From positions 1 through 50,433 of the forward strand of contig CAKAQP010000001.1 of assembly GCA_916720285.1 (NCBI GenBank): a stretch of 50,433 nucleotides of DNA. Reading direction: 5' to 3'. The notes beneath the pieces were generated by a model. The model saw nothing but the letters and a program-made list of their open reading frames with translations, did not search any database and was not told where the DNA came from. This DNA is from an uncultured Lachnoanaerobaculum sp. (GTDB lineage Bacteria; Bacillota; Clostridia; Lachnospirales; Lachnospiraceae). The translations under genes and the position numbers were made by a program. Below, piece by piece: positions 2-32,674 of this stretch; position 1 is the first letter of the stretch; each line of letters starts with the position of its first letter.

Positions 2-1144
2 CTATTTCAGCACTTCTCTGGCTATAACAACCTTGTGAATCTCTGAAGTACCTTCATATATTTCTGTTATCTTTGCATCTCTATACATTCTCTCCAAAGG
101 ATAGTCTCTCATATATCCATATCCTCCATGTATCTGTAATGCCTTATCTGTTACTTCAACCGCTACCTTTGATGCATTAAACTTTGCAATAGCAGCCTCT
201 TTTGTATATGGCATACCGCTCACTTTAAGGCTTGCAGCTCTATATGTCATCCATCTTGCACACTCAACCTTTGTAGCCATCTCCGCAAGATACCATTGCA
301 AGCCCTGCAATGAGGAAATAGGTCTGCCAAATTGTACTCTTTCTTTTGTGTACTTTATGCTTTCATCCAATGCACCTGCCGCAATACCCACAGCCTGCGC
401 CGCAATTCCTATTCTTGCACCGTCAAGTGCAGTCATTGCAATTTTAAATCCCTTACCGAGCGGTCCTATAAGATTATCCTTTGGAACTCTGCAATTATCA
501 AATATAAGCTCCGCTGTCTCTGATCCGTGAAGTCCCATCTTATCTTCTATCTTACCTATTGAAAATCCGGGTGTACCACGCTCTACCAATATACAGCTTA
601 GTCCCTTAGTCTTTAACTCCGGTGAGGTAAGAGCAAATACCAATACATATTTTGCCAATCCTCCACCTGTTATAAAACATTTTGTACCGTTTAGTACATA
701 TTCCTGTGTTTTCTCATCAAATATAGCTGTTGTTCTTGCACTTCCTGCATCAGATCCGGCATTCGGCTCGGTGAGGGCAAATGCCCCCAACTCGCCTCCT
801 GCACATACTACCGGCAAATATTTTTGCTTTTGTTCTTCAGTACCGAATTTTTCGATTACCGAAGCAAATATAGTATGTATTGAAAGTGTAGCTGCAGTAG
901 AACCGCAGTATTTAGCTATTTCTTCCACAGCAATTATCTTTTCGATATCGCTGCCTCCGCTACCGCCGTATTTTTCCTCAGTTCCTATACCGGTTAATCC
1001 CATCTTGGTCATCTCCAAAAATAAATCTTTTGGAAATTTTCCGCTTCTATCTATTTCTTCAGCTCTTGGTTTTACCACATTTTCACTGAAGTCGGCTACA
1101 GTTTTTTTAAGCATCAACTGTGCTTTGGAAAAATTAAAATCCAT
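2..1144 (-). CDS. Acyl-CoA dehydrogenase (Bcd/AcrC-like; candidate acryloyl-CoA reductase catalytic subunit)
   Basis: 380 aa with ACAD motifs ALTEPNAGSDA, NGTKCFITGG, ERVQFGRPI, QIHGGYGY and IYEGTSEI. GGAGGA RBS. Lies directly downstream of the lyase/CoA-transferase genes. Confidence 0.92.
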   Translation of the reverse strand: MDFNFSKAQLMLKKTVADFSENVVKPRAEEIDRSGKFPKDLFLEMTKMGLTGIGTEEKYGGSGGSDIEKIIAVEEIAKYCGSTAATLSIHTIFASVIEKFGTEEQKQKYLPVVCAGGELGAFALTEPNAGSDAGSARTTAIFDEKTQEYVLNGTKCFITGGGLAKYVLVFALTSPELKTKGLSCILVERGTPGFSIGKIEDKMGLHGSETAELIFDNCRVPKDNLIGPLGKGFKIAMTALDGARIGIAAQAVGIAAGALDESIKYTKERVQFGRPISSLQGLQWYLAEMATKVECARWMTYRAASLKVSGMPYTKEAAIAKFNASKVAVEVTDKALQIHGGYGYMRDYPLERMYRDAKITEIYEGTSEIHKVVIAREVLK

Positions 1145-1157: not shown

Positions 1158-2726
1158 CTAGATTACGCCTTCTTCTTTTAATTGCTTCAATGTTTCATCA
1201 TCAAAGCCGTAAACCTCTTTATTATGTTGTCCAAGAAGCGGTGCCGGTGCATCTACACTTCCCGGTGTTTCGCTCAGCTTGATAGGACAACCCTGTATAT
1301 ACATATCACCTATTGTAGGATGCTCAACATGTACCATCATCTCTCTTGCCTGGAAATGTGGATGTTCTATTGCTTCCTTCATATCAAGTATCTGTCCGCA
1401 AGGTATTCCGACCTCCTCAAACAGTCTTTCTACTTCTGCCTTGCCTCTTTGTTTTACCCAATCTACAATTATCTCATGTAAACCGTCATTGTAATTTTTA
1501 ATTCTGAGATCATTGGTAGCAAACTTCTCATTTGTAACAAGATCAGGTCTGCCTATTACATCACAGAACAGCTTAAATAGTTTATCTGTACCTACTCCAA
1601 GTGCGATATATCCGTCCTTTGCCTCATATACATTGAATGGTGAAACTGTAGCATCAATATTTCCCTGTCTCTGAGGTATAATTCCTTTAAGAGTTGTATA
1701 GATTATTGCATTTTCAAGCAATGTAAATATAGTATCTGCCATAGCCACATCTACCTGCTGACCTTCACCGGTTACATTTCTTCTGTAAAGCGCCATAAGT
1801 ACACCGACACAAAGATAAATTCCTGTAACATTATCAGCTACCGATACTCCGCATTTTACAGGAGGAGCATCTGTATAGCCTGTAAGATTTATCATACCGC
1901 CAAGAGCCTGTGCAACGATATCATAGCACGGCCTGTTTGAGAAAGGTCCATACTGTCCGAAACCGCTACCTGAAGCATAAATTATTCTTGGATTTATCTT
2001 CTTTAATGTCTCATAGTCAACTTGTAATTTCTTTGTTACTCCGACTCTGAAGTTTTCTACCACTACATCAGCCTCTCTGACAAGGTCATAGAAAATCTCT
2101 CTTCCTTTTTCAGTCTTTAAGTTAAGAGTAACTCCTTTTTTATTTCTGTTTATAAATGCATAAAATCCGCTTTCACCGCTATTATCATCCATTGGAGGCC
2201 AATACCTTGACTGATCACCTGTAAGAGGCTCTATCTTTATAACCTCAGCACCGTTATCTGCTAAAAGAGCGGTACAGAAAGGACCGTTATATGCATGTGT
2301 AAGGTCAAGAACCTTAAGTCCCTCAAGCGCTTTTGCTTTCTTTTTCTCCTTCTTTGCAGGAATAATGTATTCAAAAATACATACTGTTGAAAGAGGAGGA
2401 TCTTCCAAAACATCTATGGAGCTCTCAAACTCGGGCTTCTCAGGGATAACCGCAATCTTAAATGAACGCACTTCAATGATTGCTCTACCGTTTTCCTCAC
2501 CTAAAAGCCTTGCCTTATACTCCATATAATCTCCGGCAAAACATGGTACAAACAGTCTTACTTTTCTTACCTTTGCACATCTGCTTTGATTTCCATAAAC
2601 CTTGGTCATCAATCTGTTTGCGGTATCTTCCATCAAAGTAATAGACCTTGCACCGTTTACAACACCTCCACCGTAGAAAACATCTCTATCTGACATTCTA
2701 TATCTTAATGTAACTTCAGTACTCAT
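1158..2726 (-). CDS. Fusion of an N-terminal Kal/Acl-type hotdog domain (aminoacyl-CoA ammonia-lyase-like) and a family III (CaiB/BaiF) CoA-transferase
   Basis: aa 1-125 contain RMSDRDVFYGGGVVNGAR...PCFAGDYME. A Lys-rich linker KKEKKKAK follows, then LEGLKVLDLTHAYNGPFC, NRNKK, DVVVENFR and a probable catalytic Asp in VSVADNVTG. Confidence 0.85.
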   Translation of the reverse strand: MSTEVTLRYRMSDRDVFYGGGVVNGARSITLMEDTANRLMTKVYGNQSRCAKVRKVRLFVPCFAGDYMEYKARLLGEENGRAIIEVRSFKIAVIPEKPEFESSIDVLEDPPLSTVCIFEYIIPAKKEKKKAKALEGLKVLDLTHAYNGPFCTALLADNGAEVIKIEPLTGDQSRYWPPMDDNSGESGFYAFINRNKKGVTLNLKTEKGREIFYDLVREADVVVENFRVGVTKKLQVDYETLKKINPRIIYASGSGFGQYGPFSNRPCYDIVAQALGGMINLTGYTDAPPVKCGVSVADNVTGIYLCVGVLMALYRRNVTGEGQQVDVAMADTIFTLLENAIIYTTLKGIIPQRQGNIDATVSPFNVYEAKDGYIALGVGTDKLFKLFCDVIGRPDLVTNEKFATNDLRIKNYNDGLHEIIVDWVKQRGKAEVERLFEEVGIPCGQILDMKEAIEHPHFQAREMMVHVEHPTIGDMYIQGCPIKLSETPGSVDAPAPLLGQHNKEVYGFDDETLKQLKEEGVI

Positions 2727-2737: not shown

Positions 2738-3193
2738 TTAAAGTTCAAGTTCTCTCCAAGGGTCAATAACTTCACCACTTGGCTGATTTCCACGTTGTAA
2801 TTCTTTCTTTACTACAAGTACTACAGTACCTTCAGTAATCAATTTTGGAGGATCGAAATAATACATATCTCCCGGATTAGCATCTTTGATACCCATTCTA
2901 TATGCAGGAGTTGCAACTTTATAAGTGCTTATTCTACATGTTCTTGATGTATTTCCCACCTTTAGCATCTCTGCTCTGAAATTAAGTTGATCACCTACAT
3001 ATGCATCTTCATACAGCTCAACATCCGTATATCCAAGGCACAAAGATTCATCACCGTCATTTAATATCATCAACTCTGTTTCAACATCACCGATAAAGTC
3101 AAACTGTCTCCCAAACGGTATTTTTCCGTCAACATTATTTGCATCGGCAGTTGTCATATTATAATTTAATTCCGCTACTTTTCTAACACTCAT
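2738..3193 (-). CDS. Beta-alanyl-CoA/3-aminobutyryl-CoA ammonia-lyase-like hotdog protein
   Basis: 151 aa with GDVETELM..NDGDESL, VGD, VGNTSR and C-terminal LQRG, which resemble Acl/Kal. GAGGTG RBS. Confidence 0.8.
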   Translation of the reverse strand: MSVRKVAELNYNMTTADANNVDGKIPFGRQFDFIGDVETELMILNDGDESLCLGYTDVELYEDAYVGDQLNFRAEMLKVGNTSRTCRISTYKVATPAYRMGIKDANPGDMYYFDPPKLITEGTVVLVVKKELQRGNQPSGEVIDPWRELEL

Positions 3194-3256: not shown

Positions 3257-4513
3257 TTATTGAGCATCACACTTTAATACTGCATTCAAAAGTACGCTGG
3301 CACCCTTTGTACACTGCTCAACCGGAGTAAACTCCTCTTCACAATGAGAATGTCCGTCCTTTGAAGGTACAAATATCATTGTAGTAGGCATCATATAGCT
3401 TACAAACTGTGCATCATGTCCCGCACCTGAGTTGATTCTTTGATTTGAATATCCGAGCTCATTTACAGCCTCTGTTACATAACCTATAAGCTTCTCATCA
3501 TAGTAAACTGTATCTCTTGACCATGCTCTCTCATAACCTGTAGTACAGCCTACTATTTCCTTCGGTATATTCTTTATTACTTCAACAACCTGCTCTATAA
3601 CCTTAGGATCCTCATGTCTTGCATCTATTGAGAACTCTACAAAATCAGGAATAACTGTATGTACATTTGGATGACATACTATCTCACCTGTTGTATATAC
3701 GAGTGCCTTGTCAAGCTTATCAAGCTCATCATGAAGATACTGTAAAAGCTTTGCAGCTGCATATAATGCATCTTTTCTATATGGCATAGGAGTTGTTCCT
3801 GCATGATCTGACTGTCCGAACGCTTTGATTCTGTAGTTTATCATTCCAAGAACACAGGTAACTATTCCGATATCATTCTTTGCAGCCTCAAGGATAGGTC
3901 CCTGCTCAATATGAAGCTCGAACATTGCCTTATAATCCTTAGGATTTAATCTGTTTGCTACATCTCCCTTATAGCCGCTTGCTTCAAGGGCCTCTTTAAA
4001 TGTCTTATTCTTATCAAGAACTGAAGTTGATGCAAGCATATCCTCATGCTTAAACTTCTTTCCAATCTCTTCCGGTAAGTAATCATTACAGATAACTCCT
4101 GATGACATCATAGCTGGTGGATATAAAGATCCTTCCTCATTTGTCCAAATCATTGCTACGAGATTGTGCTTATGAGGTATCTTTTGTTCTGCAACAGACT
4201 CCAAAACTTCCATAGCTCCCATTACACCTAAAATACCGTCATAGTTTCCACCATTTCTTACCGAATCCGAATGTGAAGCCATAACAATTGCCGGAAGTGT
4301 AGGATCACTACCCTCTAATGTTGCATACATATTTGCCATATCATCGGTCTTAACCTTTGCACCGATAGCTTCCATTCTTTTCTTGAATTCAGCTCTTGCC
4401 ATTAGATTTTCTTTTGAAAGAGAATATCTCGTGATACCGCCATGTCCTGCATCACCAAACTGACTCATGGTTTTAATCTTATCTGCCATTCTATCTTCGC
4501 TACACTTATACAT
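3257..4513 (-). CDS. M20-family Zn amidohydrolase; beta-ureidopropionase (N-carbamoyl-beta-alanine amidohydrolase, PydC-like)
   Basis: Motifs SHSDSV, GGNYDG, NEEG, ELHIEQG, HAGTT and SGAGHDA. Follows the dihydropyrimidinase gene. Confidence 0.88.
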   Translation of the reverse strand: MYKCSEDRMADKIKTMSQFGDAGHGGITRYSLSKENLMARAEFKKRMEAIGAKVKTDDMANMYATLEGSDPTLPAIVMASHSDSVRNGGNYDGILGVMGAMEVLESVAEQKIPHKHNLVAMIWTNEEGSLYPPAMMSSGVICNDYLPEEIGKKFKHEDMLASTSVLDKNKTFKEALEASGYKGDVANRLNPKDYKAMFELHIEQGPILEAAKNDIGIVTCVLGMINYRIKAFGQSDHAGTTPMPYRKDALYAAAKLLQYLHDELDKLDKALVYTTGEIVCHPNVHTVIPDFVEFSIDARHEDPKVIEQVVEVIKNIPKEIVGCTTGYERAWSRDTVYYDEKLIGYVTEAVNELGYSNQRINSGAGHDAQFVSYMMPTTMIFVPSKDGHSHCEEEFTPVEQCTKGASVLLNAVLKCDAQ

Positions 4514-4607: not shown

Positions 4608-5978
4608 TTAACTTCTAGGTACTCTCTTTACGAATTTACCCATTCCCGGCTTTCCAACGAAATCTCCGTTATCATAGACAAGCTGTCCTCTGAGGAATGT
4701 CTTTACAGGATATCCGTGAAGCTTCTTTCCTTCCCATATAGTATGGTCATAGTCTGAATGCATATTATTTATACTTATGGTAAAATCCTTATCCCTATCA
4801 TAGATTACTATATCCGCATCATTTCCTACTCTGACTCCGCCTTTCTTATCACATCCGAATATTCTTGCAGGATTTGTTGAGCAAAGAGCCACAGCCTGTG
4901 AGAATGTGATCTTACCTGAATTCGCAGCATCAAGCATATATGGATACATATTTTCCACACCTGCACATCCGTTTGGAATCTTTGTAAAGTCATCTATACC
5001 CCAGTCCTTTTCATAGCTCTGGAACGGGCAGTGATCTGTCGCTACTACATCGATCTGATTTTTCTTGATTGCTTCCCAAAGAGCCTGTCTGCTTTCTTCT
5101 CCTTTTATAGGAGGTGAACATACAAAGTTTCTTCCGTCTTCTCTCTTATATACCTCACATGTGAACTCAAGATACTGTGGGCAGGTCTCAACATAAATAG
5201 GAACGCCCTCTTTCTTACCTTCTATACATGCTTCAAGTCCTTCCTTGTCAGCCATATGAACAATGTAGAGCGGTGCATCCAAATGCTTACACCAATGCAG
5301 AGCTCTTCTGTCAGCTTCAGCTTCAACAAACTCCTGACGTGCCAGATAGTGGTACCAAGGGCTCAAATTGCCTTCTTTTTTGAACTTAGCTTCAAAATAA
5401 TCTATCATATCGGAATTCTCTGCATGAACATTTACCAATGCTCCGAGTTCCTTTGCTCTAAGAAGCAAAGTTGCAAACATTCCGTCATCTACCATCATTC
5501 CGGCTTTTTTGTATACCATGAAGCATTTGTAAGATGTAATACCTTCTTTAACCGCTTCTTCCATTTCTTCAAGTATCTGACCATCATTGAAATCGGTAAT
5601 AATACAATGTGATGCCCAGTCTACACAGGCTTCTTTTTCAAGTATGGCTTTTTTTGAATTTACCAAATCCATAATAGTGCCACCTTTTCTCTGAACCGGA
5701 TAATCAAATATTGTAGTAACTCCTCCACAGGCTGCAGCTCTGGTACCTGAAAGGTAACTGTCCGCAGATATGGTTCCTCCAAAAGGCATAGCCAAATGAG
5801 TATGTACATCCAATGCTCCCGGAAGCACAAGCTTACCTGTAGCATCCACTACTTCTTTTGCCTCCATGTCAAGATTCAGACCCATCTCCACGATTTTTCC
5901 GTCTTTTACCCCTACATCACATGGGAACATATCCGTTGCTGTAACTACCACACCACCTTTAATAATTAAATCTAACAT
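4608..5978 (-). CDS. hydA: Dihydropyrimidinase
   Basis: Amidohydrolase motifs PGALDVHTH, AACGGVTT, VHAEN, VHM, ETCPQYL, SPP, ATDHCPF and IPNG. Confidence 0.93.
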   Translation of the reverse strand: MLDLIIKGGVVVTATDMFPCDVGVKDGKIVEMGLNLDMEAKEVVDATGKLVLPGALDVHTHLAMPFGGTISADSYLSGTRAAACGGVTTIFDYPVQRKGGTIMDLVNSKKAILEKEACVDWASHCIITDFNDGQILEEMEEAVKEGITSYKCFMVYKKAGMMVDDGMFATLLLRAKELGALVNVHAENSDMIDYFEAKFKKEGNLSPWYHYLARQEFVEAEADRRALHWCKHLDAPLYIVHMADKEGLEACIEGKKEGVPIYVETCPQYLEFTCEVYKREDGRNFVCSPPIKGEESRQALWEAIKKNQIDVVATDHCPFQSYEKDWGIDDFTKIPNGCAGVENMYPYMLDAANSGKITFSQAVALCSTNPARIFGCDKKGGVRVGNDADIVIYDRDKDFTISINNMHSDYDHTIWEGKKLHGYPVKTFLRGQLVYDNGDFVGKPGMGKFVKRVPRS

Positions 5979-5998: not shown

Positions 5999-7261
5999 TT
6001 ATAGATAACTATTAGTTTCCTTTAAATTAATTGTATGATTATCATTCTTATCCTTATATACAAGTTTACCCGGTGTTATACACTGCATTACCGGACAAAC
6101 ATTTAAGCAAAGATGACATCCTACACATTTATCTTCATTTATTGTAGGAACTCTGGTTGCATAATCATATTCAATAGCCTGATGTGCCGCATCAAAGCAT
6201 GATACATAGCATCTTCCACATCCGACACATTTTTCTTTATCGATCTGAACCAGGATCTTATATGATCTATCCAAATCATCAGCACCAACAATATTTCCTA
6301 CGGCGGTACCCACTATATCCTGAAGTTTATTTATTCCGTAATCATTCATATAATGTGATATACCGCTTATCATATCTTCAACAATTCTATATCCATATTG
6401 CATTACTGCAGTTGTTACCTGAAGATTTGATGCACCAAGCATCAAAAATTCCAAGCAGTCTCTCCAGGTTTCTATACCACCCATTCCGGTTATCGGAACT
6501 TTGCTTACAATAGGATCATGCATTAAGTCTGATATAAATCTGAGTGCAATAGGTTTTACAGCCGCTCCGGAATATCCTGATATTGCAGATTTTCCGTTTA
6601 CAACAGGCATACCTGTTCTAAGATTTATATCAAGGTTTGTGATAGATTTTACTGTATTTATGGCAGCTATTCCTTTTGCACCGCCTTCTATAGCTGCTCT
6701 TGCAGGAATTTCCATATTTCCAAGGTTTGGTGTCATCTTTGCTATTATCGGTAATTTTGTGCTTGAAGAAGCCACTTCACAATAATGCTTTACCAAATCA
6801 GGATTTTGTCCTACATCAGAGCCCATAGTTGATGATGTCATCTGCGGACATGAGAAATTACATTCAATCATATCCGCTCCGGCCTTTTCAGACTCTTTTG
6901 CAAGTATCGCCCACTCATCATCGCTTGCGCCCATGATACTTGAAACTATCACTTTATTCGGAAAGTCCTTCTTTAATTGCCTGATAAACTCAAAGTTTAC
7001 TTCATTCGGCTTGTCTGAAGTCATCTCCATATTCTTAAATCCGGTCCAAGGTGTTCCCTCTTTTGAAGCTATATCAAATCTTGGTGAACATTCATTTGGT
7101 ATAAAAACGCTTATTGTTTTATAAAAAATACCACCCCAACCGGCTCTCAGTGCCTTAGCACACATTTCATAATTACTGCCTACAGGTGAAGAAGATAGAA
7201 AAAAAGGATTCTCACAATCAACACCTAAAAAATTTATTGATAAATCTTTTTTCAAAGCCAT
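5999..7261 (-). CDS. preA: NAD-dependent dihydropyrimidine dehydrogenase subunit PreA
   Basis: FMN barrel with [19 protein letters not shown] and GYSGAAVKP, plus a C-terminal 2x[4Fe-4S] domain (CVGCGRC...C, CVGCHLC...CP). Confidence 0.95.
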
Positions 7262-7271: not shown

Positions 7272-8480
7272 TCACCTTATATAATCTAATATTTGGTAAG
7301 CTGCTTCTTTTCCTTCATGAACAGACTCTACCACTGTTATACCGACACCATGTAATGCATCACCACCGGTAAATACTCCATTACCCGCAACAAAACTCTT
7401 ATAGTCTTCAACCTGATCCTGTCCTATTGCAAATACGACCATATCTGCCTTAAGTGTCATCTCATTATCATCTTTCATTCCCTTTGCGACAAGAGATGTT
7501 ACATGACCGTTTTCTCCACAAATCTTTTCAGGTGCAAATCCTGTGTAAATAGGGATACCCATCTCTCTTACAAAAGAAATCTCTTCAATATTTGCAGGTG
7601 CTTCTTCTATAGTTCTTCTATAGCAGATACATGCTTTTTCTGCACCCAACTGTCTTGCTGTTGTAGCACAATCCATTGCTACATCACCGCCTCCGATTAC
7701 GATTACTCTTTCCGGAAGTTCCTTTATCTCACCTGTTCTTGCCTTAAACAAAAACTCGATTGCCGACTCAACACCCTTAAGATCGCTACCTTCTATATCT
7801 ACTTTCTTTGAATTCCAAAGACCAACTCCGACAAATACAGCGTCATACTCACTCTTAAGTTTAGGAATGTCTTCAAATTTAATTTCCTTACCGAATTCAA
7901 ACTTTACTCCCAACTCCTTTATAAGTTCTATATCAAAATCCACAACACGGTCAGGAAGTCTTGTAGGTGTGATTCCATATCTCAAAACTCCACCTGCCTT
8001 AGCCTGTTTTTCAAAAATTGTTGTATCCACTCCCGCAAGTGCGAGCTCTCTTGCGCAAGCAAGTGATGCAGGTCCGGCACCTATCAGTGCTACCTTCTTT
8101 CCGATCTTTTCTCCGGCACTGACAAATTTTGCCGACATAGCCTGTTCTTCTTCAACCAGATATCTTTGTATTTTACCGATCTGTATAGGCTTATCTATTC
8201 CACATCTACTACATTCTTCTTCACACATTCTGTCATAAGGACATACCCAGGCACATGAACCACCTAAAGGATTGTTCTCTCTTATTGTCTCTGCGGCACC
8301 CTTTATGTTCTTAAATCTCAGTGAGCGAATGAACTTAGCCGGATCTGTCCCTGCAGGACAGCCCTTAGAACAAGGTGCATCTTCACATAGAAGACACCTG
8401 GATGCTTCCTCCATGGCAAGTCTGTAATTAAAGCCTTCCGACTTCTCCATGCCATATGCCAATTTTAAAATTTTGCTCAT
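7272..8480 (-). CDS. preT: Dihydropyrimidine dehydrogenase subunit PreT (GltD-like flavoprotein)
   Basis: [36 protein letters not shown] and GGGDVAMD. Adjacent to preA. Confidence 0.93.
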
Positions 8481-8506: not shown

Positions 8507-9016
8507 TTAATCCTCTAAAAATTTAGCAATGACCCAGTCTTTTTTATCGGTCTTCTTGAAAAACTTTGCTAATATAAATCTACCCAGATAATCTGATGCG
8601 AGCCCAACGATATTTCCCAGGATAAAGCAAATAATCAACATCTTCCAATTACCACCTGATGCAAAAGCACTAAAGCCGCCCATAAATGTGCAAGTTGCAA
8701 ATCTGGTCAAATCACAATGTGTGATATAGATGATAACTCCACTGAAAATTCCTGTTATCAATCCGTTAAACCATAGACTTCCGTTTACATTTACACATAG
8801 CCAAATGATTGTACATCCGATAAAAATACCTGCGATATTGCTGCATAACGATCTGATAAAACCGTTTTTTCCACATCCTGCTGCATAATAAGATGTACAT
8901 CCTGCAAAGCCTACCCACGTTGCTATCAGCGGACCGGCAAACATAGCCGAAATATATGTCCATAGACCACATACAATTATGTTTGATATGGTATTTGATA
9001 TAATAAATCCCGCCAT
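8507..9016 (-). CDS. DUF1097 (YcdZ-like) membrane protein
   Basis: 169 aa, multi-TM, with WVGFAGCTSYYA, SNIAG and FMGGFSAFA. AAGGAGG RBS. Confidence 0.75.
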   Translation of the reverse strand: MAGFIISNTISNIIVCGLWTYISAMFAGPLIATWVGFAGCTSYYAAGCGKNGFIRSLCSNIAGIFIGCTIIWLCVNVNGSLWFNGLITGIFSGVIIYITHCDLTRFATCTFMGGFSAFASGGNWKMLIICFILGNIVGLASDYLGRFILAKFFKKTDKKDWVIAKFLED

Positions 9017-9418: not shown

Positions 9419-10276
9419 TTAGTTTCTCGGTTTTACAGGTACTATTATCTTTACAATATGCTGCTCGGTATTTGGCAAATCTACCGGTGAAAGCATAAAT
9501 CTTTCTGTTACAGGCCCGTCCACCATCAGCTCATTTTCTTCTATCCATCTTTTCAAAGAAATATATGTATGCACTATATCACTGTAATCACCGACATATA
9601 TAGCATTTGCGGCAAGAAAATTTCCAAATTTCTTCACTTCAGCATCTTTGATATCATTTTCCACCACAATGGAAAACTCTACCTCACAATCCCTGTGAAT
9701 GAATTGTCCAAACATTTCCGTATGATAAGACACTAGAATATCACCCTGGATATTCAGATTTCTTTCTTTTGCAGACTCTATAATATCAATCCATTTTTCA
9801 AGACTGACTTTTTCGTTCTTATAAGACTGCATCATGGTAGTTTTGCCAAATACATATACTTCTCTTTGCTTTTCAAGCTTAAATGAACTTTCTACATTGT
9901 AGTTATTACTGTTTTCAAGTATTCTTTGCGCAGATTCAAGCTTATTCTTTAGTGTAGCGGCTTCTTCATACTTTTTATTCAGCTCAATAATTTCATCTTT
10001 TATGGAGTTTTGTTTTTTTGTCACTATAAGTTCTATCTTTTGAATATCATCTTCTTTTAATATATTCCTAACTTCTTCCAGAGAAAATCCCAAATATCTG
10101 AGTCTCTTTATTATAAAAAGCCGTACCATTTGGTCATGACTGTAATATCTGTAATTATTGTTTTCCTGTCTGATACTTGGAACCATTACATTTATTTTAT
10201 CGTAATATCTTAAAGTCTTTATAGGAATATTACATATTTCCGATACTCTCCCAATAGAATAATATTTGTCTTTCAA
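9419..10276 (-). CDS. MerR-family regulator with C-terminal GyrI-like effector domain (BltR/BmrR type)
   Basis: YYSIGRVSEICNIPIKTLRYYD, NNYRYY, LRYLGFSLEEV, a coiled coil, and C-terminal YVGDY..I..TY..L..WIEEN. TTG start with GGAGGG RBS. Confidence 0.9.
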   Translation of the reverse strand: MKDKYYSIGRVSEICNIPIKTLRYYDKINVMVPSIRQENNNYRYYSHDQMVRLFIIKRLRYLGFSLEEVRNILKEDDIQKIELIVTKKQNSIKDEIIELNKKYEEAATLKNKLESAQRILENSNNYNVESSFKLEKQREVYVFGKTTMMQSYKNEKVSLEKWIDIIESAKERNLNIQGDILVSYHTEMFGQFIHRDCEVEFSIVVENDIKDAEVKKFGNFLAANAIYVGDYSDIVHTYISLKRWIEENELMVDGPVTERFMLSPVDLPNTEQHIVKIIVPVKPRN

Positions 10277-22615: not shown

Positions 22616-24001
22616 CTAGAGTAATATATATTTCAATATAAACAATATTGAAAGTATATACATAAGCGGTGTAACCTTCTTAGCTCTTCCTGTAAGGGCA
22701 TTGATAAATACATAAGATATAATTCCCATTGAAATACCCTCTGAAATACTGTAGAAGAGCGGCATTGCAACTATACAGATATAGCAGGGAATGGCTTCTG
22801 TCATATCTGAGAAATCAATATGTACAACGTTTGAGAACATATAGAATCCTACCACTATAAGTGCCGGTGCTGTTGCAAAAGAAGGTATTGCAAGGAATAT
22901 AGGTGATAATAACAATGAAGCCGCAAAAAGAACTGCTGTTGTCATTGCTGTAAGACCTGTTCTTCCACCTTCTGAAACGCCTGAAGCGGACTCAACGAAT
23001 GTTGTAACTGTTGTTGTACCAAGCATTGCACCTGCTGTGGTAGCTACGGCATCCGCAAGTAATGCACCCCTGATATTTGGAAGCTTACCGTCTTTATCAA
23101 GCATTCCGGCCTTTGTAGATACACCTATCAATGTACCGATAGTATCAAACATATCTACAAATAAGAATGCGAACATAACTACAACAAACTCCAATGTTGC
23201 AATCTTGTGGAACTCAAGCTTGAATAAAACCGGTCCTATACTCGGTATACTGAGTCCGTTTGAAAAATCAGGTAATACACTGTAAAAACCCAGTGCAGGG
23301 TTTGGAACATACAAACCTGTAATCTGAGCGATTATACCTAGAACCCATGTTGCCAATATACCGAGTAAGATATTTCCCTTTACTTCTTTTACAACCAGGA
23401 ATGCTGTAATAAGCACACCGATTATAGCAATAACAACTGTAATACCTGCATCATTTCCTGTAGCAATTACACCTTCAACGCCATGTACCTTGTTGTATCC
23501 TCCAAGTGAGAATAATTGTACAAGTGTTTTACCAGCGCCTATAACGATCTTAGCATTTTGAAGTCCGATAAATGCGATAAAAATTCCGATACCCACACTT
23601 ACAGCTGATTTTAAGTTTCTTGGAACCGCATTAAAGATAGCCTCACGCACATTTGTAACTGAGAGTGCTATAAATATAATACCTTCTACAAATACCGCTG
23701 TAAGAGCTGTCTGCCAGCTATATCCCTTACCTAAAACTACACTATAAGTAAAATATGCATTAAGTCCCATACCCGGTGCAAGTGCAAAAGGATAGTTTGC
23801 AAACAATGCCATAAGTGCAGTACCTAAAAATGAAGCTATTGCAGTTGCTGTAAACACGGCACCTCTGTCCATATCTGCATAACTTAAGATATCCGGATTA
23901 ACTGCTAAAATATATGCCATTGTCATAAATGTTGTAATACCGGCAATAATCTCGGTTTTTACATCGGTTCCGTTTTCTTTCAGTTTAAAAAACTTTTCCA
24001 T
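22616..24001 (-). CDS. NCS2/AzgA-type purine permease (PbuG-like)
   Basis: TEIIAGITTFMTMAYIL.VNP, APGMGLNAYF, FDTIGT and ESASGVSEGGRTGL. Confidence 0.92.
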   Translation of the reverse strand: MEKFFKLKENGTDVKTEIIAGITTFMTMAYILAVNPDILSYADMDRGAVFTATAIASFLGTALMALFANYPFALAPGMGLNAYFTYSVVLGKGYSWQTALTAVFVEGIIFIALSVTNVREAIFNAVPRNLKSAVSVGIGIFIAFIGLQNAKIVIGAGKTLVQLFSLGGYNKVHGVEGVIATGNDAGITVVIAIIGVLITAFLVVKEVKGNILLGILATWVLGIIAQITGLYVPNPALGFYSVLPDFSNGLSIPSIGPVLFKLEFHKIATLEFVVVMFAFLFVDMFDTIGTLIGVSTKAGMLDKDGKLPNIRGALLADAVATTAGAMLGTTTVTTFVESASGVSEGGRTGLTAMTTAVLFAASLLLSPIFLAIPSFATAPALIVVGFYMFSNVVHIDFSDMTEAIPCYICIVAMPLFYSISEGISMGIISYVFINALTGRAKKVTPLMYILSILFILKYILL

Positions 24002-24129
24002 ATATAGTCTCCTTTTTTTTATTATACTCCGGTGATACTCGGCCCGGAGTTTTTAGTTTTCTTGTAAGTCAAATTTAATTAAAGATATTTAAGTCTATAT
24101 ATCACTGCCATTCAATATATTTTAAAAAT

Positions 24130-25863
24130 CTAATTTGCCTCAATGTCTATGAACTTATTTTCAAAAATATCGAATAACCCCCCGGCAGTGAGTTTCAACT
24201 CGGGAATAACCATAAGTGACATAAACGTAAGTGACATAACAGGCTCAAGGCTTTCGTTAACCCCTAATTCAACTACAGCCTTTTTGTGAAGACTTAAAAG
24301 TTTCTTTGAAACCTCTTCACCGCTTAAATCACTCATAAGTCCCGCTACAGGCAAAGACAGGCTTTCAATCACCTTTCCGTCCTTTACCAGCGCAAAACCT
24401 CCACCGTTTTGTTTCACATTCTCTATAGCAAGATCCATTTCATCATCATTTACGCCTACGCAGATAATATTATGTGAATCATGTGCTACGGATGCCGCTA
24501 TGGCACCGCTTTGTATACCATATCCTTTTATTATTCCCAGTCCGATCTTACCTGTATTGTGATGCCTCTCTATGACCGCACATTTGCAGGCATCTATATT
24601 TTTATCAAAGACAAAAAGACCGTTTTCATCTCTTTTTATCTTTATCCTTGTTTTCTTTGAAAGCACTCCTCCCGCAATCATTTCAATTGCATAAACCTCA
24701 TCGGATTTCAGCCACATTTGTAGCATTTCCTTTTTGAAGTTATCCAGATGTACAGTATTTGACACATCTGTAATATCATGCTTTTTTAACTCTTTGAGAT
24801 ACTCTCCCTCTCTTGCAACTTCCTCACCGAGGATATATACCGATGATACTTTAAAATCTTTCAGTTCATCGAATATAACAAGATCAGCCCTCTTTCCCGG
24901 AACTATCATTCCCCTGTCTTTTAATCCATAGCAATCGCTTACATTTACAGTAGCCATTGCAATTGCCATAACAGGTGAGATTCCGGCATTTACCAGAGTT
25001 TTCAAATGATATTCAAGATGTCCGTCCTCAAAAATTGTCTTCGGTTGTCTGTCATCCGAACATAATAAACATCTTCTGAAATTAAACTCGTTTATTCCGG
25101 GTATCAGTGCCTCAAGATTGTGACAGGCTGATCCCTGTCTCAGCTGTACATAGATGCCTCTGCTCAATCTGTCTTCCATCTCTTCAAGTGTGGAGCACTC
25201 ATGATCCGTGTCAATTCCGGCGCAGGCATATGCATTTAATGCCTTACCGAACAGATTAGGACTGTGTCCGTCTACAATTTTCCCGTGATCCTTTGCTAAA
25301 ATAAGTTTATCAATGGCAATGTCGTCATTTTCAATAACGGCATTGTAGTCCATGAACTCACCAAGTCCCGGAACATCTTTTGATACTATATCATCTGCCA
25401 TATCCTCAGCCGATATCACACATCCCGAATCCTCCATCTTTGTTGCAGGTACACAGGACGGCATCATATATTCTACGGACAGGCAGGTGTTTTTTGCGGC
25501 CTCCTGCATATAGTGAAAGCCCTTTATCCCACATACATTCACTATCTCATGAGGATCCGCTATGACAGTGGTAGTACCGTGAGGTACCACCATTCTGCCG
25601 AATTCTTCAGGAGTACAGTATGATGACTCTATATGAATATGTGCATCCATAAGACCCGGTGCGATATATTTCCCATCTATATCCACCTCTATTTCACCAT
25701 CATACTCTCCAAATCCTGCAATATAACCTTCTGCTATAGCGAGGTCCGCTTTGAATATTTTTCCGCTGCAGACATCCACTATAGAGCCGTTTTTTAGTAC
25801 AAGATCAGCTTTTTTATTCCCATTTGCCACATCAATCAGTCGCTTTAAACTATCTTTGTTCAT
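24130..25863 (-). CDS. ade: Adenine deaminase
   Basis: DAHIHIESS, DPHEIVNV, PSCVPAT, DGHSP, DHEC and SVAHDSHN. Start at ATG 25863. Confidence 0.95.
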   Translation of the reverse strand: MNKDSLKRLIDVANGNKKADLVLKNGSIVDVCSGKIFKADLAIAEGYIAGFGEYDGEIEVDIDGKYIAPGLMDAHIHIESSYCTPEEFGRMVVPHGTTTVIADPHEIVNVCGIKGFHYMQEAAKNTCLSVEYMMPSCVPATKMEDSGCVISAEDMADDIVSKDVPGLGEFMDYNAVIENDDIAIDKLILAKDHGKIVDGHSPNLFGKALNAYACAGIDTDHECSTLEEMEDRLSRGIYVQLRQGSACHNLEALIPGINEFNFRRCLLCSDDRQPKTIFEDGHLEYHLKTLVNAGISPVMAIAMATVNVSDCYGLKDRGMIVPGKRADLVIFDELKDFKVSSVYILGEEVAREGEYLKELKKHDITDVSNTVHLDNFKKEMLQMWLKSDEVYAIEMIAGGVLSKKTRIKIKRDENGLFVFDKNIDACKCAVIERHHNTGKIGLGIIKGYGIQSGAIAASVAHDSHNIICVGVNDDEMDLAIENVKQNGGGFALVKDGKVIESLSLPVAGLMSDLSGEEVSKKLLSLHKKAVVELGVNESLEPVMSLTFMSLMVIPELKLTAGGLFDIFENKFIDIEAN

Positions 25864-25892
25864 ACTCCCTCCAAAAGCCAAGCTCCTATCGA

Positions 25893-26384
25893 TCAGTCAA
25901 CACCAAGTCTCTTCTTCATTGTCTTTTCAACTGCTACAAGTATGTTCTCATAACCTGTACATCTGCAAAGATGCCCTGAGAGTAACTTTCTCAGCTCTTC
26001 TTTTGAATAGAGTTTTCCACTGTTAAGAATCTCCGTAGCCGACATTACAAATCCGGGTGTACAGAAACCGCACTGTATAGCAGCCTCATCTATAAATGCC
26101 TGCTGCAAATCCGATATCTCACCGTTTGGTCCCATAAGACCTTCCAATGTAAGGATATCTTTGCCCTCGGCCCATACTGCCAGATAAATACATGAGTTAA
26201 ATGCCTCTCCGTTTATAAGAACATTACATGCTCCGCACTCTCCTACCTCACAGCCTTTTTTTACGGAAGTAAGTCTATAGTCATTTCTAAGCATATCTGT
26301 AAGTGAACTTCTTACATCTACCATTTTCTCACATTTCTTGCCGTTGATGGTACAACTGACCAATTTATAACTCTGTCCTGTCAT
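25893..26384 (-). CDS. xdhC: Xanthine dehydrogenase 2Fe-2S subunit
   Basis: KKGCEVGECGAC, QCGFCTPG and HLCRCTGY. Confidence 0.92.
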   Translation of the reverse strand: MTGQSYKLVSCTINGKKCEKMVDVRSSLTDMLRNDYRLTSVKKGCEVGECGACNVLINGEAFNSCIYLAVWAEGKDILTLEGLMGPNGEISDLQQAFIDEAAIQCGFCTPGFVMSATEILNSGKLYSKEELRKLLSGHLCRCTGYENILVAVEKTMKKRLGVD

Positions 26385-27264
26385 CGACCTTACCTCCTGC
26401 CTGCTTTACAGCCTTTTCACAAGCTTTTCTTGCCATAACAACACCGATATGACATCTGAAAGCTTTACTTGCTCTCCATGAATCACGAGGATTGATATCT
26501 TCCAAAACTTTCTGTGCAAAAGCTTCTATATTCTCCTCATTAACTTCTTTTCCTCTGATAAAGTTTTCCGCTGAAGGAACTCTCATAGGAATAGGACCGG
26601 CTACACCGTAAGCTATTCTTACATCCTCAAAGCTCTTTTTATCTTCTGAGAGCTTTACATTTACCGAACAGCCGGTAGTAGCAATATCCATTGCCTCTCT
26701 CATTGCATACTTTATATAATGACCTTTATAACCTTCATATGCCTTCTTTGGGATAATAATAGCTGTCTGTATCTCTCCCTCTTTTAAATCCACTGTTCCG
26801 GCCTTTATATAAAATTCATTTATAGGTACTAATCTTCTGTAGCCCTCTCCGGCTATCTCAACCTGTGCATCCCATGCAAAAAGTGTGGAAGCGGAGTCTG
26901 CCGATGTAACACCGTTACATGTATTTCCACCGATAGTTCCTATATTTCTGATCTGCGGTCCACCTATCTGATCCACGGCTTCACCAAGTACATTTATGTA
27001 TTTTTGTATAATAGGATTCTTTGTAATATGTGAGAAGCTTGTTAAAGATCCTATTCTTATATTTTCATCGGCATCAAGGCAGATACCTCTAAGCTCATCA
27101 AGCATATAGATACTTACAAGCTCCTTACCCGCTCTCTTTCCTTCTCTTATCTGTACCAAAACATCACTTCCTCCGGCAATAACCTGTGAGCCCGGATGTT
27201 CTTTTAAAAGTCTGCAAGCATCATCTACGCTTGTCGCCTCATATAAAGCTTTTATATCGTACAT
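26365..27264 (-). CDS. xdhB: Xanthine dehydrogenase FAD subunit
   Basis: IAGGSDV, QIRNIGTIGGN, SADSA and RDSWRAS. Confidence 0.92.
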   Translation of the reverse strand: MYDIKALYEATSVDDACRLLKEHPGSQVIAGGSDVLVQIREGKRAGKELVSIYMLDELRGICLDADENIRIGSLTSFSHITKNPIIQKYINVLGEAVDQIGGPQIRNIGTIGGNTCNGVTSADSASTLFAWDAQVEIAGEGYRRLVPINEFYIKAGTVDLKEGEIQTAIIIPKKAYEGYKGHYIKYAMREAMDIATTGCSVNVKLSEDKKSFEDVRIAYGVAGPIPMRVPSAENFIRGKEVNEENIEAFAQKVLEDINPRDSWRASKAFRCHIGVVMARKACEKAVKQAGGKVDDRTEL

Positions 27265-27273
27265 TTCTTCCTC

Positions 27274-29565
27274 CTACTTAAGTAAACCTGCTTTGTCAAA
27301 ATATTCATACAGTTTTTCCGGACGTAAAGGTAATTCATTAACACCTACACCTGTAGCATTCATAATAGCGTTTCTTATAGCCGGTGCCACAGGACAAACC
27401 GGTGGCTCACCCAATGATTTTGTACCGAATGGTGATGTAGGCTCAGGATTTTCAATAAATGCCGTCTCAAGATGTGGATGATCCATGCATGTAGAAAGCT
27501 TATAATCAAGCAGGTTATCATTTAAGACTTTTCCTGTCTTCTTATCTACAAGCTGTACCTCCGAGAGTGCATATCCTATACCCATACTCATACCGCCTTC
27601 AACCTGTGCCTTAGCAAGTGCAGGGTTGATAAGCTTACCGCAGTCATGTACATTTATTATCTTTGTGAGCTTTGCTTTACACATATCTATATCAACTTCA
27701 ACCTCTGCAAAACAGCATCCGAATGAATATGCATTTGACTTAATCTGTGCTGTAGACTCCGCTGTAATATGTCTGCTGTCACTTAGAGAATAAAGTGCTT
27801 CTGTTGCCAGATCTCTTAATGAAATAAGCTCTCTGTTATCTGTAGTTCTTATTATCATAGAATTCTTTATATCTGTAATTGCCGGTGGCATATTTGTCAA
27901 AATATAAGCATAGTCAAGAATCTTCTGCTTCAAAAGTCCTGCTGTCTTTGCAATAGAGAAACCACCTACATAGGTCTGTCTTGAAGCATATGAACCTGTA
28001 CCGAAAGGTGTAATATCGGTATCCTGGTTTGAAACAACATGCACTTCATCCGTGCTGATTCCAAGAACTTCTGCAGCCATCTGTGAGAATGCCGTATCAG
28101 CTCCCTGTCCTATCTCAGTCTCACCAAGCTGTAATGTTACAGAACCGTCCTGATTGAGTACCATTCTTGATGATGACGACTCAAGTGATATAGGCCAAAC
28201 CGCAGTATTATACCAAAATGCAGCCATTCCTATACCTGTTCTTACTCTGCCTGTCTGTTTTGAAAGCTCTTTGACTCTGTTATCATAGTCCATATAAGCT
28301 TTACCTTTTTCGATACATTGTCTGAATGTATCATAGTAGTTTTCATTCTTTGAAAAAGCGTCCTTATATCCCTGTGGCATAAGATTCTTAAGTCTGAAGT
28401 CGATAGGTGGAATACCCATTATCTTCGCAACATCTTCCGTATGAGACTCTACCGCAAACATAGCCTGCGGAATTCCGTATCCTCTCATAGCTCCCGCTAC
28501 AGGTCTGTTTGTAAATACCGTATATGCATCACCTTCAACATTATCACATGGATAAAGCTGTGGGAAGGCTCCGAGTCCCTTTGCCGCGATAGAATGTCCG
28601 TGTGAAGCATATGCACCCTGGTTTGAGAATGCTTCTATCTTTCTTGCGGCATATGTACCGTCTTTTCTTACATGTGAAATTATATGGAACTTTATACCAT
28701 GTCTTGTTCTGTTTGCAAAGAAAGTTTCCTCTCTGCTGCAATCAAGCTTTACAAGATGTCCTCCCACCTGTAATGAAAGGAATGCACAAAGCGGCTCATA
28801 TAATATATCCTGCTTATTTCCGAAGCCACCACCGATATAAGGCTTAATAACTCTTACATCTCCCCAAGGAATACCGAGAGCCTGACCTACAACTCTTCTT
28901 GCAATATGAGGAATCTGCGTAGAAGCTACTATCGTAATTCTTTTGCCTTCTGCATATGCGTAGCAGATAAAGTTCTCTATATGGCAATGCTGTACAGGTT
29001 CGGTATTATACCATCTGTCAACTACCGTAAGGCCCTCTTCTTTGATTGCCTCAGCATAATTACCTCTGCTAAGACTTGTGTGCTTTAAAATATTGTTAGG
29101 GTAATCCTTATGAATCTGTGGTGCACCGTCCTTCATAGCTTCCAAAACATCTGTAACCACAGGGTACTCTTCATATTCCACCTTTATAGCTCTGAGCGCC
29201 TGATTTGCAGCCACCTCATTTTCAGCTATAACAGCCGCAACATCATCACCGTAAAACTTAACTTCATCAGTGAGAAGTAATCTGTCTGCAACGTCCTGAT
29301 GGCTTACGTCTGTAGACCATGGATGTCCTGCTGTAGGGAAGTAATTTCTATACTGTCCAAGATCAAAGCAAGTGACAATCTTAACAACTCCCTCAATCTT
29401 CTTTGCCTCACTTGTGTCAACAGAAAGAACTTTTCCGTGAGCTATTGTGGAATGCACTATTTTTGCCACATATGCTCCCGCATCACATAAATCGTCAGTA
29501 TATTTTGTTCTACCTGTGACCTTGTCAAACGCATCCACTCTGGTGATACTTTTTCCAACCTCCAT
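27274..29565 (-). CDS. xdhA: Xanthine dehydrogenase molybdenum-binding subunit (E. coli XdhA-like)
   Basis: KVTGRTKY, GGGFGNKQ, GAMRGYG, EIGQG, YASRQT, QVEGG and KSLGE. Confidence 0.93.
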   Translation of the reverse strand: MEVGKSITRVDAFDKVTGRTKYTDDLCDAGAYVAKIVHSTIAHGKVLSVDTSEAKKIEGVVKIVTCFDLGQYRNYFPTAGHPWSTDVSHQDVADRLLLTDEVKFYGDDVAAVIAENEVAANQALRAIKVEYEEYPVVTDVLEAMKDGAPQIHKDYPNNILKHTSLSRGNYAEAIKEEGLTVVDRWYNTEPVQHCHIENFICYAYAEGKRITIVASTQIPHIARRVVGQALGIPWGDVRVIKPYIGGGFGNKQDILYEPLCAFLSLQVGGHLVKLDCSREETFFANRTRHGIKFHIISHVRKDGTYAARKIEAFSNQGAYASHGHSIAAKGLGAFPQLYPCDNVEGDAYTVFTNRPVAGAMRGYGIPQAMFAVESHTEDVAKIMGIPPIDFRLKNLMPQGYKDAFSKNENYYDTFRQCIEKGKAYMDYDNRVKELSKQTGRVRTGIGMAAFWYNTAVWPISLESSSSRMVLNQDGSVTLQLGETEIGQGADTAFSQMAAEVLGISTDEVHVVSNQDTDITPFGTGSYASRQTYVGGFSIAKTAGLLKQKILDYAYILTNMPPAITDIKNSMIIRTTDNRELISLRDLATEALYSLSDSRHITAESTAQIKSNAYSFGCCFAEVEVDIDMCKAKLTKIINVHDCGKLINPALAKAQVEGGMSMGIGYALSEVQLVDKKTGKVLNDNLLDYKLSTCMDHPHLETAFIENPEPTSPFGTKSLGEPPVCPVAPAIRNAIMNATGVGVNELPLRPEKLYEYFDKAGLLK

Positions 29566-29670
29566 ATTATTTCCTCTCTAATTTAATATTTTATATTATT
29601 TAATTTATATACCTTTACCATCTTGTAGCAATTAGCTTCCTCGTCTTTGTAAGTTGATAAAAATATAAAA

Positions 29671-30939
29671 TTAAACAGTGACCGTTTTTACTCCGGATAC
29701 ATATTTTGCTCTCAATGAGCATTCATCCGACAGATATAAGAATCTTTCAAATCTCTTTCTTATATCATCAATATCCTTATTCAATTCCTCATCATTTATT
29801 ACAAGCATATCCGCTTCAAATCCTTCTTCAAAGGCTCCCACCTTTCCGAAGTAACTTCCCGGAATCCTTGTTGCTATAGCAAATGCCTCAGCAAGCTCCA
29901 GAGGTTTTGAATTTTCATCTATATATCTCCAATAAAGCTTTGAAAGCCCTATTGCTTCTACCGCCTGGTTTAATATATTCAGCGAGTATCCCGCCGCTAT
30001 ATCACTTCCAAGCCCTACTTTTATACCCTTATCAAGAAATTTCCTTATAGGCGCTATTCCCGATGACAGACATATATTTGACTGCGGACAATGAGCTACA
30101 TACACATTTTTCTCCTTTAAAAGTTCAATCTCCTTATCATCAGAGTATACACAATGTGCCATAACCGTGTCTACCTTACTTTTATTCAGATTACCTCTTT
30201 TATTGTAAGCATCAAGATATCCGTCCGAATCCGGGCAAAGCTCCCTTACCCATTCGACTTCCTTGGGATTTTCCGATAAATGTGACTGTAATCCGTAAAT
30301 ATCTCCTCTAATCTTTCCAAGTTCTTTCATCAATTCATCACTGCAACTTGGAATAAATCTTGGAGTAATTATCGGCTTTATATTCTTATATCTGTCTTTA
30401 CAGATATCAAGCCATTTAACTGTAGAATCTATAGATGACTCTGTAGTTTCAATAAGTTCATCTGTAGAATTTCTGTCCATGTTTACCTTACCTACAAAAC
30501 ATTTCAATCCGCTCTTTTCCAGCATATCCATCAACAGTATTGTAGCATCCGTATGCAAGGTCGCAAATACTACCGCTCTTGTGGAATAACTTTTAGACAA
30601 TGTATCCACGAATTTTTTATAGGCTTTTTTTGCATATTCTATATCCTTGTATTTGGCTTCTTCGGGAAATGTATATGTATTGAGCCAATCTAAAAGTTCC
30701 ATATCCATTCCAAGCCCTCTGAAGGCAAATTGAGGTGCATGAAGATGCATATCTATAAGTCCCGGTAATATCAAAGAATCTCCGTAATCTTCTATCTCCT
30801 CATTCTTTAAAGCATCAGGAAGCTCGTCTTGCGAATATATTTTTGATATAACGCCGTTTTCAACTACTAAAAAGCTGTTTTCTCTTATCCTGATCGTACC
30901 TTTTTTTGTACAATCCACCAAATTTCCTTTAACTATCAT
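29671..30939 (-). CDS. guaD: Guanine deaminase
   Basis: PGLIDMHLHAPQ, LLDWLNTYTFPEE, ITPRF, QSHLSEN, MAHC, HCPQSN and GLGSD. Start at ATG 30939 behind AGGGGAG; the longer ORF runs into the riboswitch. Confidence 0.92.
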   Translation of the reverse strand: MIVKGNLVDCTKKGTIRIRENSFLVVENGVISKIYSQDELPDALKNEEIEDYGDSLILPGLIDMHLHAPQFAFRGLGMDMELLDWLNTYTFPEEAKYKDIEYAKKAYKKFVDTLSKSYSTRAVVFATLHTDATILLMDMLEKSGLKCFVGKVNMDRNSTDELIETTESSIDSTVKWLDICKDRYKNIKPIITPRFIPSCSDELMKELGKIRGDIYGLQSHLSENPKEVEWVRELCPDSDGYLDAYNKRGNLNKSKVDTVMAHCVYSDDKEIELLKEKNVYVAHCPQSNICLSSGIAPIRKFLDKGIKVGLGSDIAAGYSLNILNQAVEAIGLSKLYWRYIDENSKPLELAEAFAIATRIPGSYFGKVGAFEEGFEADMLVINDEELNKDIDDIRKRFERFLYLSDECSLRAKYVSGVKTVTV

Positions 30940-30953
30940 ATTCTCCCCTAATA

Positions 30954-30995
30954 AAAATATGAGGTGCTTTCCATTGTGCATGGAAACACACCTCA
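30954..30995 (-). terminator. Terminator-like hairpin of the riboswitch expression platform
   Basis: Minus strand TGAGGTGTGTTTCCATGCACAATGGAAAGCACCTCA-TATTTTT. Confidence 0.65.
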
Positions 30996-32663: not shown

Positions 32664-32674
32664 AAACCTTCTCT

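Follow-up and report, generated by a model that had tools for sequence, protein, structure and literature searches.

Introduction

Acl1/Acl2, Kal, Act and AcrCBA are enzymes that have already been described. Acl1/Acl2 of Anaerotignum (Clostridium) propionicum (PDB 4MTU, 4MZQ) are hotdog-fold ammonia-lyases whose partners are a family III coenzyme A (CoA)-transferase and an acryloyl-CoA reductase, and the same family includes Kal (NF052388) and the Kal-Kce fusion (NF052389), which shows that these hotdogs fuse to pathway neighbors in other settings too. Here we analyze a stretch of 50,433 nucleotides from an uncultured Lachnoanaerobaculum sp. (the window; contig CAKAQP010000001.1 of assembly GCA_916720285.1; named relatives of this genus are 95-99% identical), in which a minus-strand open reading frame (ORF) of 522 residues (P0001, 1158..2726) joins an Acl/Kal-like hotdog domain, subunit B (residues 1-124, 2355..2726), to a family III CoA-transferase. 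A stand-alone upstream gene on the same strand encodes a second hotdog, subunit A (P0002, 151 residues, 2738..3193), and ends 11 nt before the fusion starts. While the fold and the partner enzymes are those of the Acl system, Acl is one gene with both sets of conserved motifs, whereas A (36-38% identical) and B (26-32%) carry one set each.

Precedents for such an arrangement come from other hotdog enzymes. PMC2698920 describes hotdog dimer sites as built from both subunits and double hotdogs as usually keeping one site and taking bulkier substrates, with ACOT7 (Asn24/Asp213) as a single-site precedent, and PMC4491049 describes the HadAB dehydratase as a heterodimer with one site. The heterodimeric HadAB and the tandem ACOT7/ACOT12 share with the predicted A-B pairing the combination of two diverged hotdogs and one active site; their chemistry differs and identity is 12-14%, making this an analogy of architecture and not of membership. 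The BvaB1/B2 β-valinyl-CoA lyases, weighed as a further two-subunit case, were set aside, since PMC4619459 describes them as crotonase-type enzymes that are each active alone.

We propose, with a probability of about 0.7, that A and B form an obligate two-subunit β-aminoacyl-CoA ammonia-lyase with one composite active site, encoded in a reductive pyrimidine operon and feeding an acryloyl-CoA reductase. The proposal is based on gene content, conservation pattern, co-occurrence and folds, from which we infer the in vivo heterodimer, the catalytic residues, the substrates and the CoA donor. No description of a two-subunit Acl/Kal, of a B-CoA-transferase fusion or of this operon was found in the full-text literature searched, most subscription journals and patents lying outside that search.

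Complementary conservation in A and B

Acl2 is the only meaningful PDB sequence match of either hotdog (E 1e-16 for A; E 2e-7 for B, the N-terminal domain of P0001, against 4MTU). On the Kal model NF052388 (cut-off 160 bits) A scores 62.5 bits and B 50.1 bits (P0001 residues 4-115, E 3e-13); Acl2 itself reaches only 121 bits, so the model is specific to Kal, and the true Kal of this genome lies elsewhere. A Pfam search gave no match for either hotdog. The NCBI product names are ‘beta-alanyl-CoA:ammonia lyase’ for A, ‘hotdog fold domain-containing protein’ for B and ‘CoA transferase’ for the fusion.

In the window, B keeps the loop Y18-G-G-G-V-V-N24-G25-A26 together with D34 (B numbering), and carries F17 in place of the canonical His, R38 in place of the canonical Glu, and Y44 and N46 where the DGD(E) motif would be. 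A keeps G35-D36-x-x-T39-E40, D46-G-D-E49-S-L and Y55 (A numbering), and its loop is degenerate (P26-F27-G28) with no His or Tyr. For the wider families, a mixed-profile search of 1.84 billion representatives gave 841 matches at E ≤0.001, of which the best 150 were examined and yielded 162 domain rows; the 128 rows that are neither A nor B served as the canonical reference set and were compared with 71 distinct A and 76 distinct B sequences. Thirty-four positions are at least 80% conserved in the canonical rows (Acl2 numbering from here on, unless residues are assigned to A or B): 11 survive in A only, 11 in B only, 5 in both and 7 in neither. The loop at 9-27 consists of B-only positions (7/7), and the helix with the loop after it at 34-54 largely of A-only positions (9/11), a block pattern with a Fisher p of 0.002 for blocks picked after the data were seen.

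Within the loop motif D-x-H-Y-x-G-x-x-V-(N/D)-G-A every B sequence keeps D, Y, G, V, N, G and A (76/76, with Y19, G21, V24, G26 and A27 each invariant), and in all 76 the His has become Phe. The residues E39, D45, D47, E48 and Y54, which are retained by 82-94% of canonical members and by 71/71 A, are kept by 0/76 B, where E39 is uniformly replaced by Arg and D47 by Asn. The helix and acidic loop residues G34, D35, T38, E39, D45, G46, D47, E48, L50 and Y54 are present in 71/71 A sequences, and the preceding loop has lost H18, Y19, G21, G26 and A27 (0/71 each), acquiring Pro at 25 (71/71) and a bulky residue at G26.

This distribution suggests that B is one half of a heteromeric Acl/Kal-type ammonia-lyase and that the other half, A, comes from the upstream gene. 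In hotdog dimers the active site lies where the N-terminal loop of one chain meets the central helix of its partner. A would provide the acidic helix and loop residues and B the Tyr/Gly-rich loop, so that the A-B pair would have one working site and one dead site. By conservation and by analogy to the thioesterases, the B loop would bind the thioester carbonyl, while the acidic residues of A would take the C2 proton and assist the departure of ammonia.

A distant family of tandem Kal-like hotdogs of 270-276 residues (P0079, P0111, P0135), 19-35% identical to A and B, is split in the same manner, the N-terminal domain keeping the Glu and DGxD and the C-terminal domain keeping D-T-H-Y-x-G without DGD. 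The cluster of P0111 includes a protein from a Dehalococcoidia metagenome-assembled genome (MAG). These proteins may represent a single-site lyase that arose separately.

Gene order and predicted A-B complex

When GTDB genomes were scanned with B, the hotdog of the fusion, 103 of 153 candidate stretches were confirmed; the top 80 yielded 71 loci, each assigned to Bacillota by its record title. Among the B genes that are not fused to A, 58/62 have A immediately upstream, and B immediately follows 58/60 unfused A genes; at 19/71 loci a single polypeptide comprises both. Of the four B genes that lack A in this position, one (L029) is a second copy that follows an A with a frameshift, another (L048) is an extra copy next to an intact pair, and a third (L070) sits at a contig edge; the fourth, L036, is considered below. 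Additional lone A copies occur at L030 and L042. The A-B pair is also found duplicated as a unit around the CoA-transferase gene (L015, L016, L018, L033, L038, L040, L041, L043). No canonical Acl/Kal was detected in 16 of 46 genomes with Acl2 as the query (best E 1e-18 or weaker), so that A and B are the sole candidates there; the others have at least one and A. propionicum has three.

The model of a natural A-B fusion (predicted local distance difference test score, pLDDT, 75; predicted template modeling score, pTM, 0.78) best matches the double hotdogs ACOT7/ACOT12 (Z 20.2, root-mean-square deviation (rmsd) 3.7 for 238 aligned residues) at 12-14% identity. Prediction of the complex between the window's own A and B, with CoA included, scored 0.63 against 0.00 for the best control, a mark reached by 116/157 solved complexes and 2/215 mismatched pairs. 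Contacts agreed by at least 96% between runs and the partner pLDDT was 88. Pairing is predicted to run through strand 2, with A 51-60 and B 49-58 as the interface strands, and through helices in antiparallel orientation; the interface includes B residues 18-19, 22 and 24-27 from the loop and A residues 31-35, 49 and 51 from the helix and acidic loop. The B loop is thereby predicted to face the A helix and acidic loop, as a composite site requires.

The fusion ORF and its CoA-transferase domain

The initial annotation had described P0001 as one uninterrupted ORF with a Kal/Acl-like hotdog of about 125 residues, a KKEKKKAK linker and a complete CaiB/BaiF domain. The frame is indeed fully open over 522 codons on the minus strand from 2726 to 1158, the plus strand being stop-rich; the linker is present at residues 125-132 (window 2331-2354), and residues 134-502 cover positions 1-366 of 366 of the CoA_transf_3 model (PF02515; 441.6 bits, above the gathering score). 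The hotdog fold stood as well: in the AlphaFold2 model residues 2-124 superpose on the hotdog acyl-CoA hydrolase 2gvh_B (Z 15.0, rmsd 2.2 for 110 aligned residues) with a fitting order of strands and helix. The Kal/Acl likeness holds for this fold and does not extend to an intact active site, the acidic motif having been lost. In the single-chain model of the whole fusion (pTM 0.60) the linker has pLDDT <50, and the interlocked transferase dimer is outside the model, so domain packing is not readable from it; Foldseek with this model returned CoA-transferases only, among the matches listed.

A stop or frameshift near 2330-2350, which the initial annotation had named as the sign of an assembly artefact, is present neither in the assemblies of relatives nor in bridging contigs. 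The junction is in frame and open in six other independent Lachnoanaerobaculum assemblies (L001-L006), isolate genomes among them; an open frame of 525-529 residues occurs in 7/8 matching genomes (12 genomes of the genus examined, the window's own included); and contigs from 2/4 public runs span positions 2330-2350 free of gaps (contigs only, with a partial listing of substitutions). These observations rule out an artefact. The fusion protein of L004 falls in a 90% cluster of 364 members. Purifying selection acts on both domains, the nonsynonymous rate (dN 0.002-0.025) being far below the synonymous rate (dS 0.15-1.05), which together with a mean column identity of 79% rules out B as a decaying pseudo-domain. 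A hidden internal start yielding a separate transferase was likewise ruled out, there being no in-frame ATG, GTG or TTG in codons 110-178. One RNA run (X12) covers 2160-2346 only and is uninformative on expression. A single-member fusion protein, P0004, has a 44-residue internal deletion in its transferase domain that is probably an assembly error.

The transferase domain (1161..2336, minus strand) is of the family III CaiB/BaiF, Frc type. In the alignment with formyl-CoA transferase (1p5h), Asp298 (codon 1833-1835) occupies the position of the catalytic Asp169. The domain is 48.6% identical over 397 residues to the A. propionicum protein encoded beside acl2, whose N-terminus matches the published Cp_act as given in the PMC13067684 supplement. 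It shares with Act this identity and the catalytic Asp, although Act is a stand-alone gene beside acl2 and the window's domain falls in a separate 75-row clade apart from Act. From the identity and the operon context the transferase is predicted to load β-alanine, the activity of Act. That Act and Acl are separate proteins in the characterized β-alanine fermentation, as the initial annotation had stated, holds in A. propionicum.

The linker KKEKKKAK (2331..2354, minus strand) looks like a translated relic of the intergenic spacer. The sequence AAGGAG at 2346-2351 lies 9 nt ahead of codon 131 (GCA), which is aligned with the start ATG of unfused relatives, and the fusion looks to have arisen when a stop codon and a start codon disappeared on either side of a purine-rich, ribosome-binding spacer. 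Across B-CoA-transferase fusions the linkers range over 8-45 residues and are charged, with no conserved sequence.

The distribution of the hotdog and CoA_transf_3 architecture, which the initial annotation had left to be measured, proved recurrent (six Lachnoanaerobaculum assemblies and other lineages) and a minority state: B is fused to the transferase at 6 of the 71 loci, fused to A at 19 and alone at 46, leaving B and the transferase separate at 65/71. A protein search found ten B-transferase fusions among 12 matches (B identity 70-98%), and among 400 other genomes sampled from the window's family a B-type gene occurs in five and is fused in two. The sole member of the genus with an unfused B (L007/L112, genome G471, 884-1270; 84% identity) shows no transferase behind B on its 2.4-kb contig. 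On a 77-row transferase tree the B-transferase fusion requires four changes, at least two of them forced by well-supported branches, and the A-B fusion six, at least three of them forced. A single origin of the B-transferase fusion was rejected by the approximately unbiased test (one clade, p 2e-48; 32 of the 77 rows after removal of the outgroup and near-duplicates, LG+G4, quick tree). The fusion would thus have had more than one origin or loss, gains being indistinguishable from losses. By itself it is a real but modest accident of gene order, and the least important part of the finding.

Operon context and proposed pathway

The genes around A and B, all on the minus strand, belong to the reductive pyrimidine pathway (PreTA, HydA, β-ureidopropionase) and to acryloyl-CoA reduction, the upstream genes of the window passing the cut-offs of those families or matching them. 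Directly downstream lies AcrC, an acryloyl-CoA reductase-type acyl-CoA dehydrogenase (2..1144; NF042972, 702 bits, cut-off 640). Upstream of A are an M20 Zn amidohydrolase (3257..4513; TIGR01879 and NF006771 above cut-off), which from its context is a putative β-ureidopropionase PydC; the dihydropyrimidinase PydB/HydA (4608..5978; TIGR02033, 457.7 bits, cut-off 393); the dihydropyrimidine dehydrogenase subunit PreA (PydA; 5999..7261; NF006183, 586 bits, cut-off 335); and its partner subunit of PreT/PydX type (7272..8480; PF14691, PF07992), named by its position beside PreA. The run begins with a DUF1097 membrane protein resembling YcdZ (8507..9016; PF06496). A MerR/GyrI-like gene (9419..10276), with homologs at 60/71 loci, is a probable regulator of the pathway. 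Scans for promoters and terminators gave chance-level counts (29 against 35; 5 against 4.5). Farther along, a minus-strand run at 22616-38155 holds genes that we take, from their N-termini, to encode purine permeases, adenine and guanine deaminases, a three-subunit molybdenum hydroxylase and selenium-handling proteins.

The order ycdZ-preT-preA-hydA is that of Anaerostipes hadrus in the available portion of PMC11036815; here it is joined to a module of CoA-dependent deamination and reduction that is absent from that portion of the description. The same source reports no β-ureidopropionase homolog in 527 A. hadrus genomes. A MAG titled Anaerostipes hadrus (L024:10612-11868) has an M20-type PydC 81% identical to the window's, beside hydA/preTA and with CoA-transferase, A and B nearby; possible explanations are that this MAG represents a sister species or that the published search started from another enzyme family.

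Across the 71 loci the transferase is found at 67, an AcrC-like gene (at least 55% identity) at 53, the MerR gene at 60 and a pyrimidine-degradation gene at 39. The 32 genomes with no pyrimidine gene at the locus comprise 20 with a PydC ortholog (59-83% identity), three with distant relatives only and nine in which none was found, many of them incomplete MAGs. The genes etfB/etfA follow acrC in relatives and lie on another contig (C268) in this genome; in the close relative L004 the Etf subunits score under the AcrB and AcrA cut-offs (293 of 475; 400 of 600). In A. propionicum DFI.7.94 (L028:4091-9360) AcrC, AcrB and AcrA exceed the NCBIfam cut-offs and stand directly upstream of CoA-transferase, A and B; pyrimidine genes adjoin this acrCBA-CoAT-A-B cluster, which is separate from the canonical act/acl2 pair. 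The organism has three canonical Acl copies elsewhere in addition to the A/B pair.

The canonical Kal of the window's genome is on contig C5 (G000:C5:11356-11709, L072) and scores 196.5 bits, above cut-off, in a neighborhood of the lysine-fermentation type, where the adjacent genes are presumably kce and kdd. In Peptoniphilus stercorisuis (L060:7453-8360) two identical canonical Acl-like genes lie within the operon, directly before A and B. The presence of canonical Acl genes alongside A/B, even within this operon, hints at a different substrate range.

In the proposed pathway PreTA, HydA and PydC would convert uracil (thymine) to β-alanine (3-aminoisobutyrate), and the CoA-transferase would load the β-amino acid onto CoA via Asp298, with propionyl-(isobutyryl-)CoA as the probable donor. 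A-B would then eliminate ammonia to give acryloyl-(methacrylyl-)CoA, and AcrC/Etf would reduce this to propionyl-/isobutyryl-CoA, closing the CoA cycle. The context points to β-alanine, 3-aminoisobutyrate or both as substrate. The 522-residue ORF would be a read-through fusion of two adjacent genes of this pyrimidine-fermentation operon, an optional feature that tethers the transferase to the lyase and sets their ratio.

Alternative readings

Several observations weigh against an obligate A-B lyase. The overall division of conserved positions into both, only and neither is not beyond what independent loss would give (p 0.10; runs test p 0.06). B retains D35, the best-conserved acidic residue, in 73/76 sequences, which leaves the second site incompletely erased, and the canonical His18 (101/116) is lost in both A and B (Phe in B), making the surviving site no plain copy of Acl. 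L036 is one true lone case, with B and no A in its 8.4-kb contig. The complex score may stem from resemblance to the Acl homodimer of known structure (4MTU/4MZQ) and leaves room for homodimers of A or B. Finally, no close PydC was found in 12/71 genomes. The loss of His18 and the missing PydC would also suit an A-B heterodimer with other chemistry (acyl-CoA thioesterase or hydratase/dehydratase) or one acting on a β-amino acid that does not come from pyrimidines, as would the fact that structure comparison of the double hotdog ranks thioesterases first, the scores of A and B far under the Kal cut-off and the canonical Acl genes of many genomes (three in A. propionicum). We nevertheless regard this as unlikely: Acl2 is the sole meaningful PDB sequence match, the ACOT likeness, at 12-14% identity, comes from the tandem layout, a deaminating step is required in the operon to link its β-alanine source to the acryloyl-CoA reductase, and an Acl2 query found no other deaminating candidate in 16/46 genomes.

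Two further readings place catalysis in a single subunit. A could be catalytic and able to act as a homo-oligomer; B would then be a scaffold or adaptor with no catalytic role, binding A and, in the fused form, bringing in the CoA-transferase. A retains all of the conserved acidic residues, is nearer to Acl2 than B is, has the NCBI lyase label that B lacks, and occurs in extra lone copies (L030, L042); but Pro at N/D25 (71/71), the absence of Gly at 26 (0/71) and the missing His18 and Tyr19 should spoil its own loop, and the invariant residues of B are exactly that loop, so that we think this, too, improbable. The opposite possibility follows the initial annotation: a bifunctional fusion in need of no partner, with a hotdog that homodimerizes as the lyase and takes up or hands on intermediates by channeling. 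In our view it is very improbable. B does keep D16, Y19, G21, G26, D35, G66 and D67, is under strong purifying selection, and is fused to the transferase on at least two separate branches. Against this stand the replacement of E39 by Arg and of D47 by Asn in 76/76 B, the near absence of B without A, the separation of B and transferase at 65/71 loci, and a linker that is an 8-45-residue spacer relic of low model confidence. The coupling of β-alanine activation to deamination that had been put forward thus fits the pathway context and does not extend to the fused hotdog as a lyase in its own right (E39, D45, D47, E48 and Y54 lost). Channeling is unsupported, given a fusion that is confined to 6/71 loci, has more than one origin or loss and varies in its linkers. 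By pathway logic the intermediate between the two fused domains is β-alanyl-CoA, whereas the lyase hands its reactive product, acryloyl-CoA, to AcrC, a protein outside the fusion; the fusion would therefore not shield acryloyl-CoA. For engineering, where usefulness had been suggested, the fusion alone is predicted to have no lyase activity, and gene A must be co-expressed.

Implications

The proposed split lyase and its operon matter more than the fusion itself. They correct an annotation trap in which A is called a complete lyase and B a generic hotdog, either alone being predicted inactive as a lyase, and they supply candidate genes in many anaerobic Bacillota for the step between pyrimidine-derived β-amino acids and acryloyl-CoA reductase. 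With its natural two-gene, A-B-fused and B-CoAT-fused forms, the family lends itself to tracing how a homodimer divides into subunits that each carry half a site. In the available portion of PMC13067684 4/6 lyases worked, and in that of its supplement the four lyases besides Cp_acl2 are all canonical; the A/B subfamily looks untried in that engineering of acrylate/methacrylate type.

A and B together probably let anaerobic mouth and gut bacteria convert pyrimidine breakdown products to short-chain acids. A more speculative extension, which we hold only tentatively from the conservation pattern, is that A-B gave up one site and His18 to admit the α-methyl substrate 3-aminoisobutyryl-CoA, and would be an undescribed obligate heteromeric ammonia-lyase. 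If so, the B-CoAT fusion would join lyase and transferase oligomers in one complex, the reaction would be an amine-eliminating route to methacrylyl-CoA, and the operon would encode the whole fermentation of thymine to isobutyrate, and of uracil to propionate, in Bacillota of the mouth and gut.

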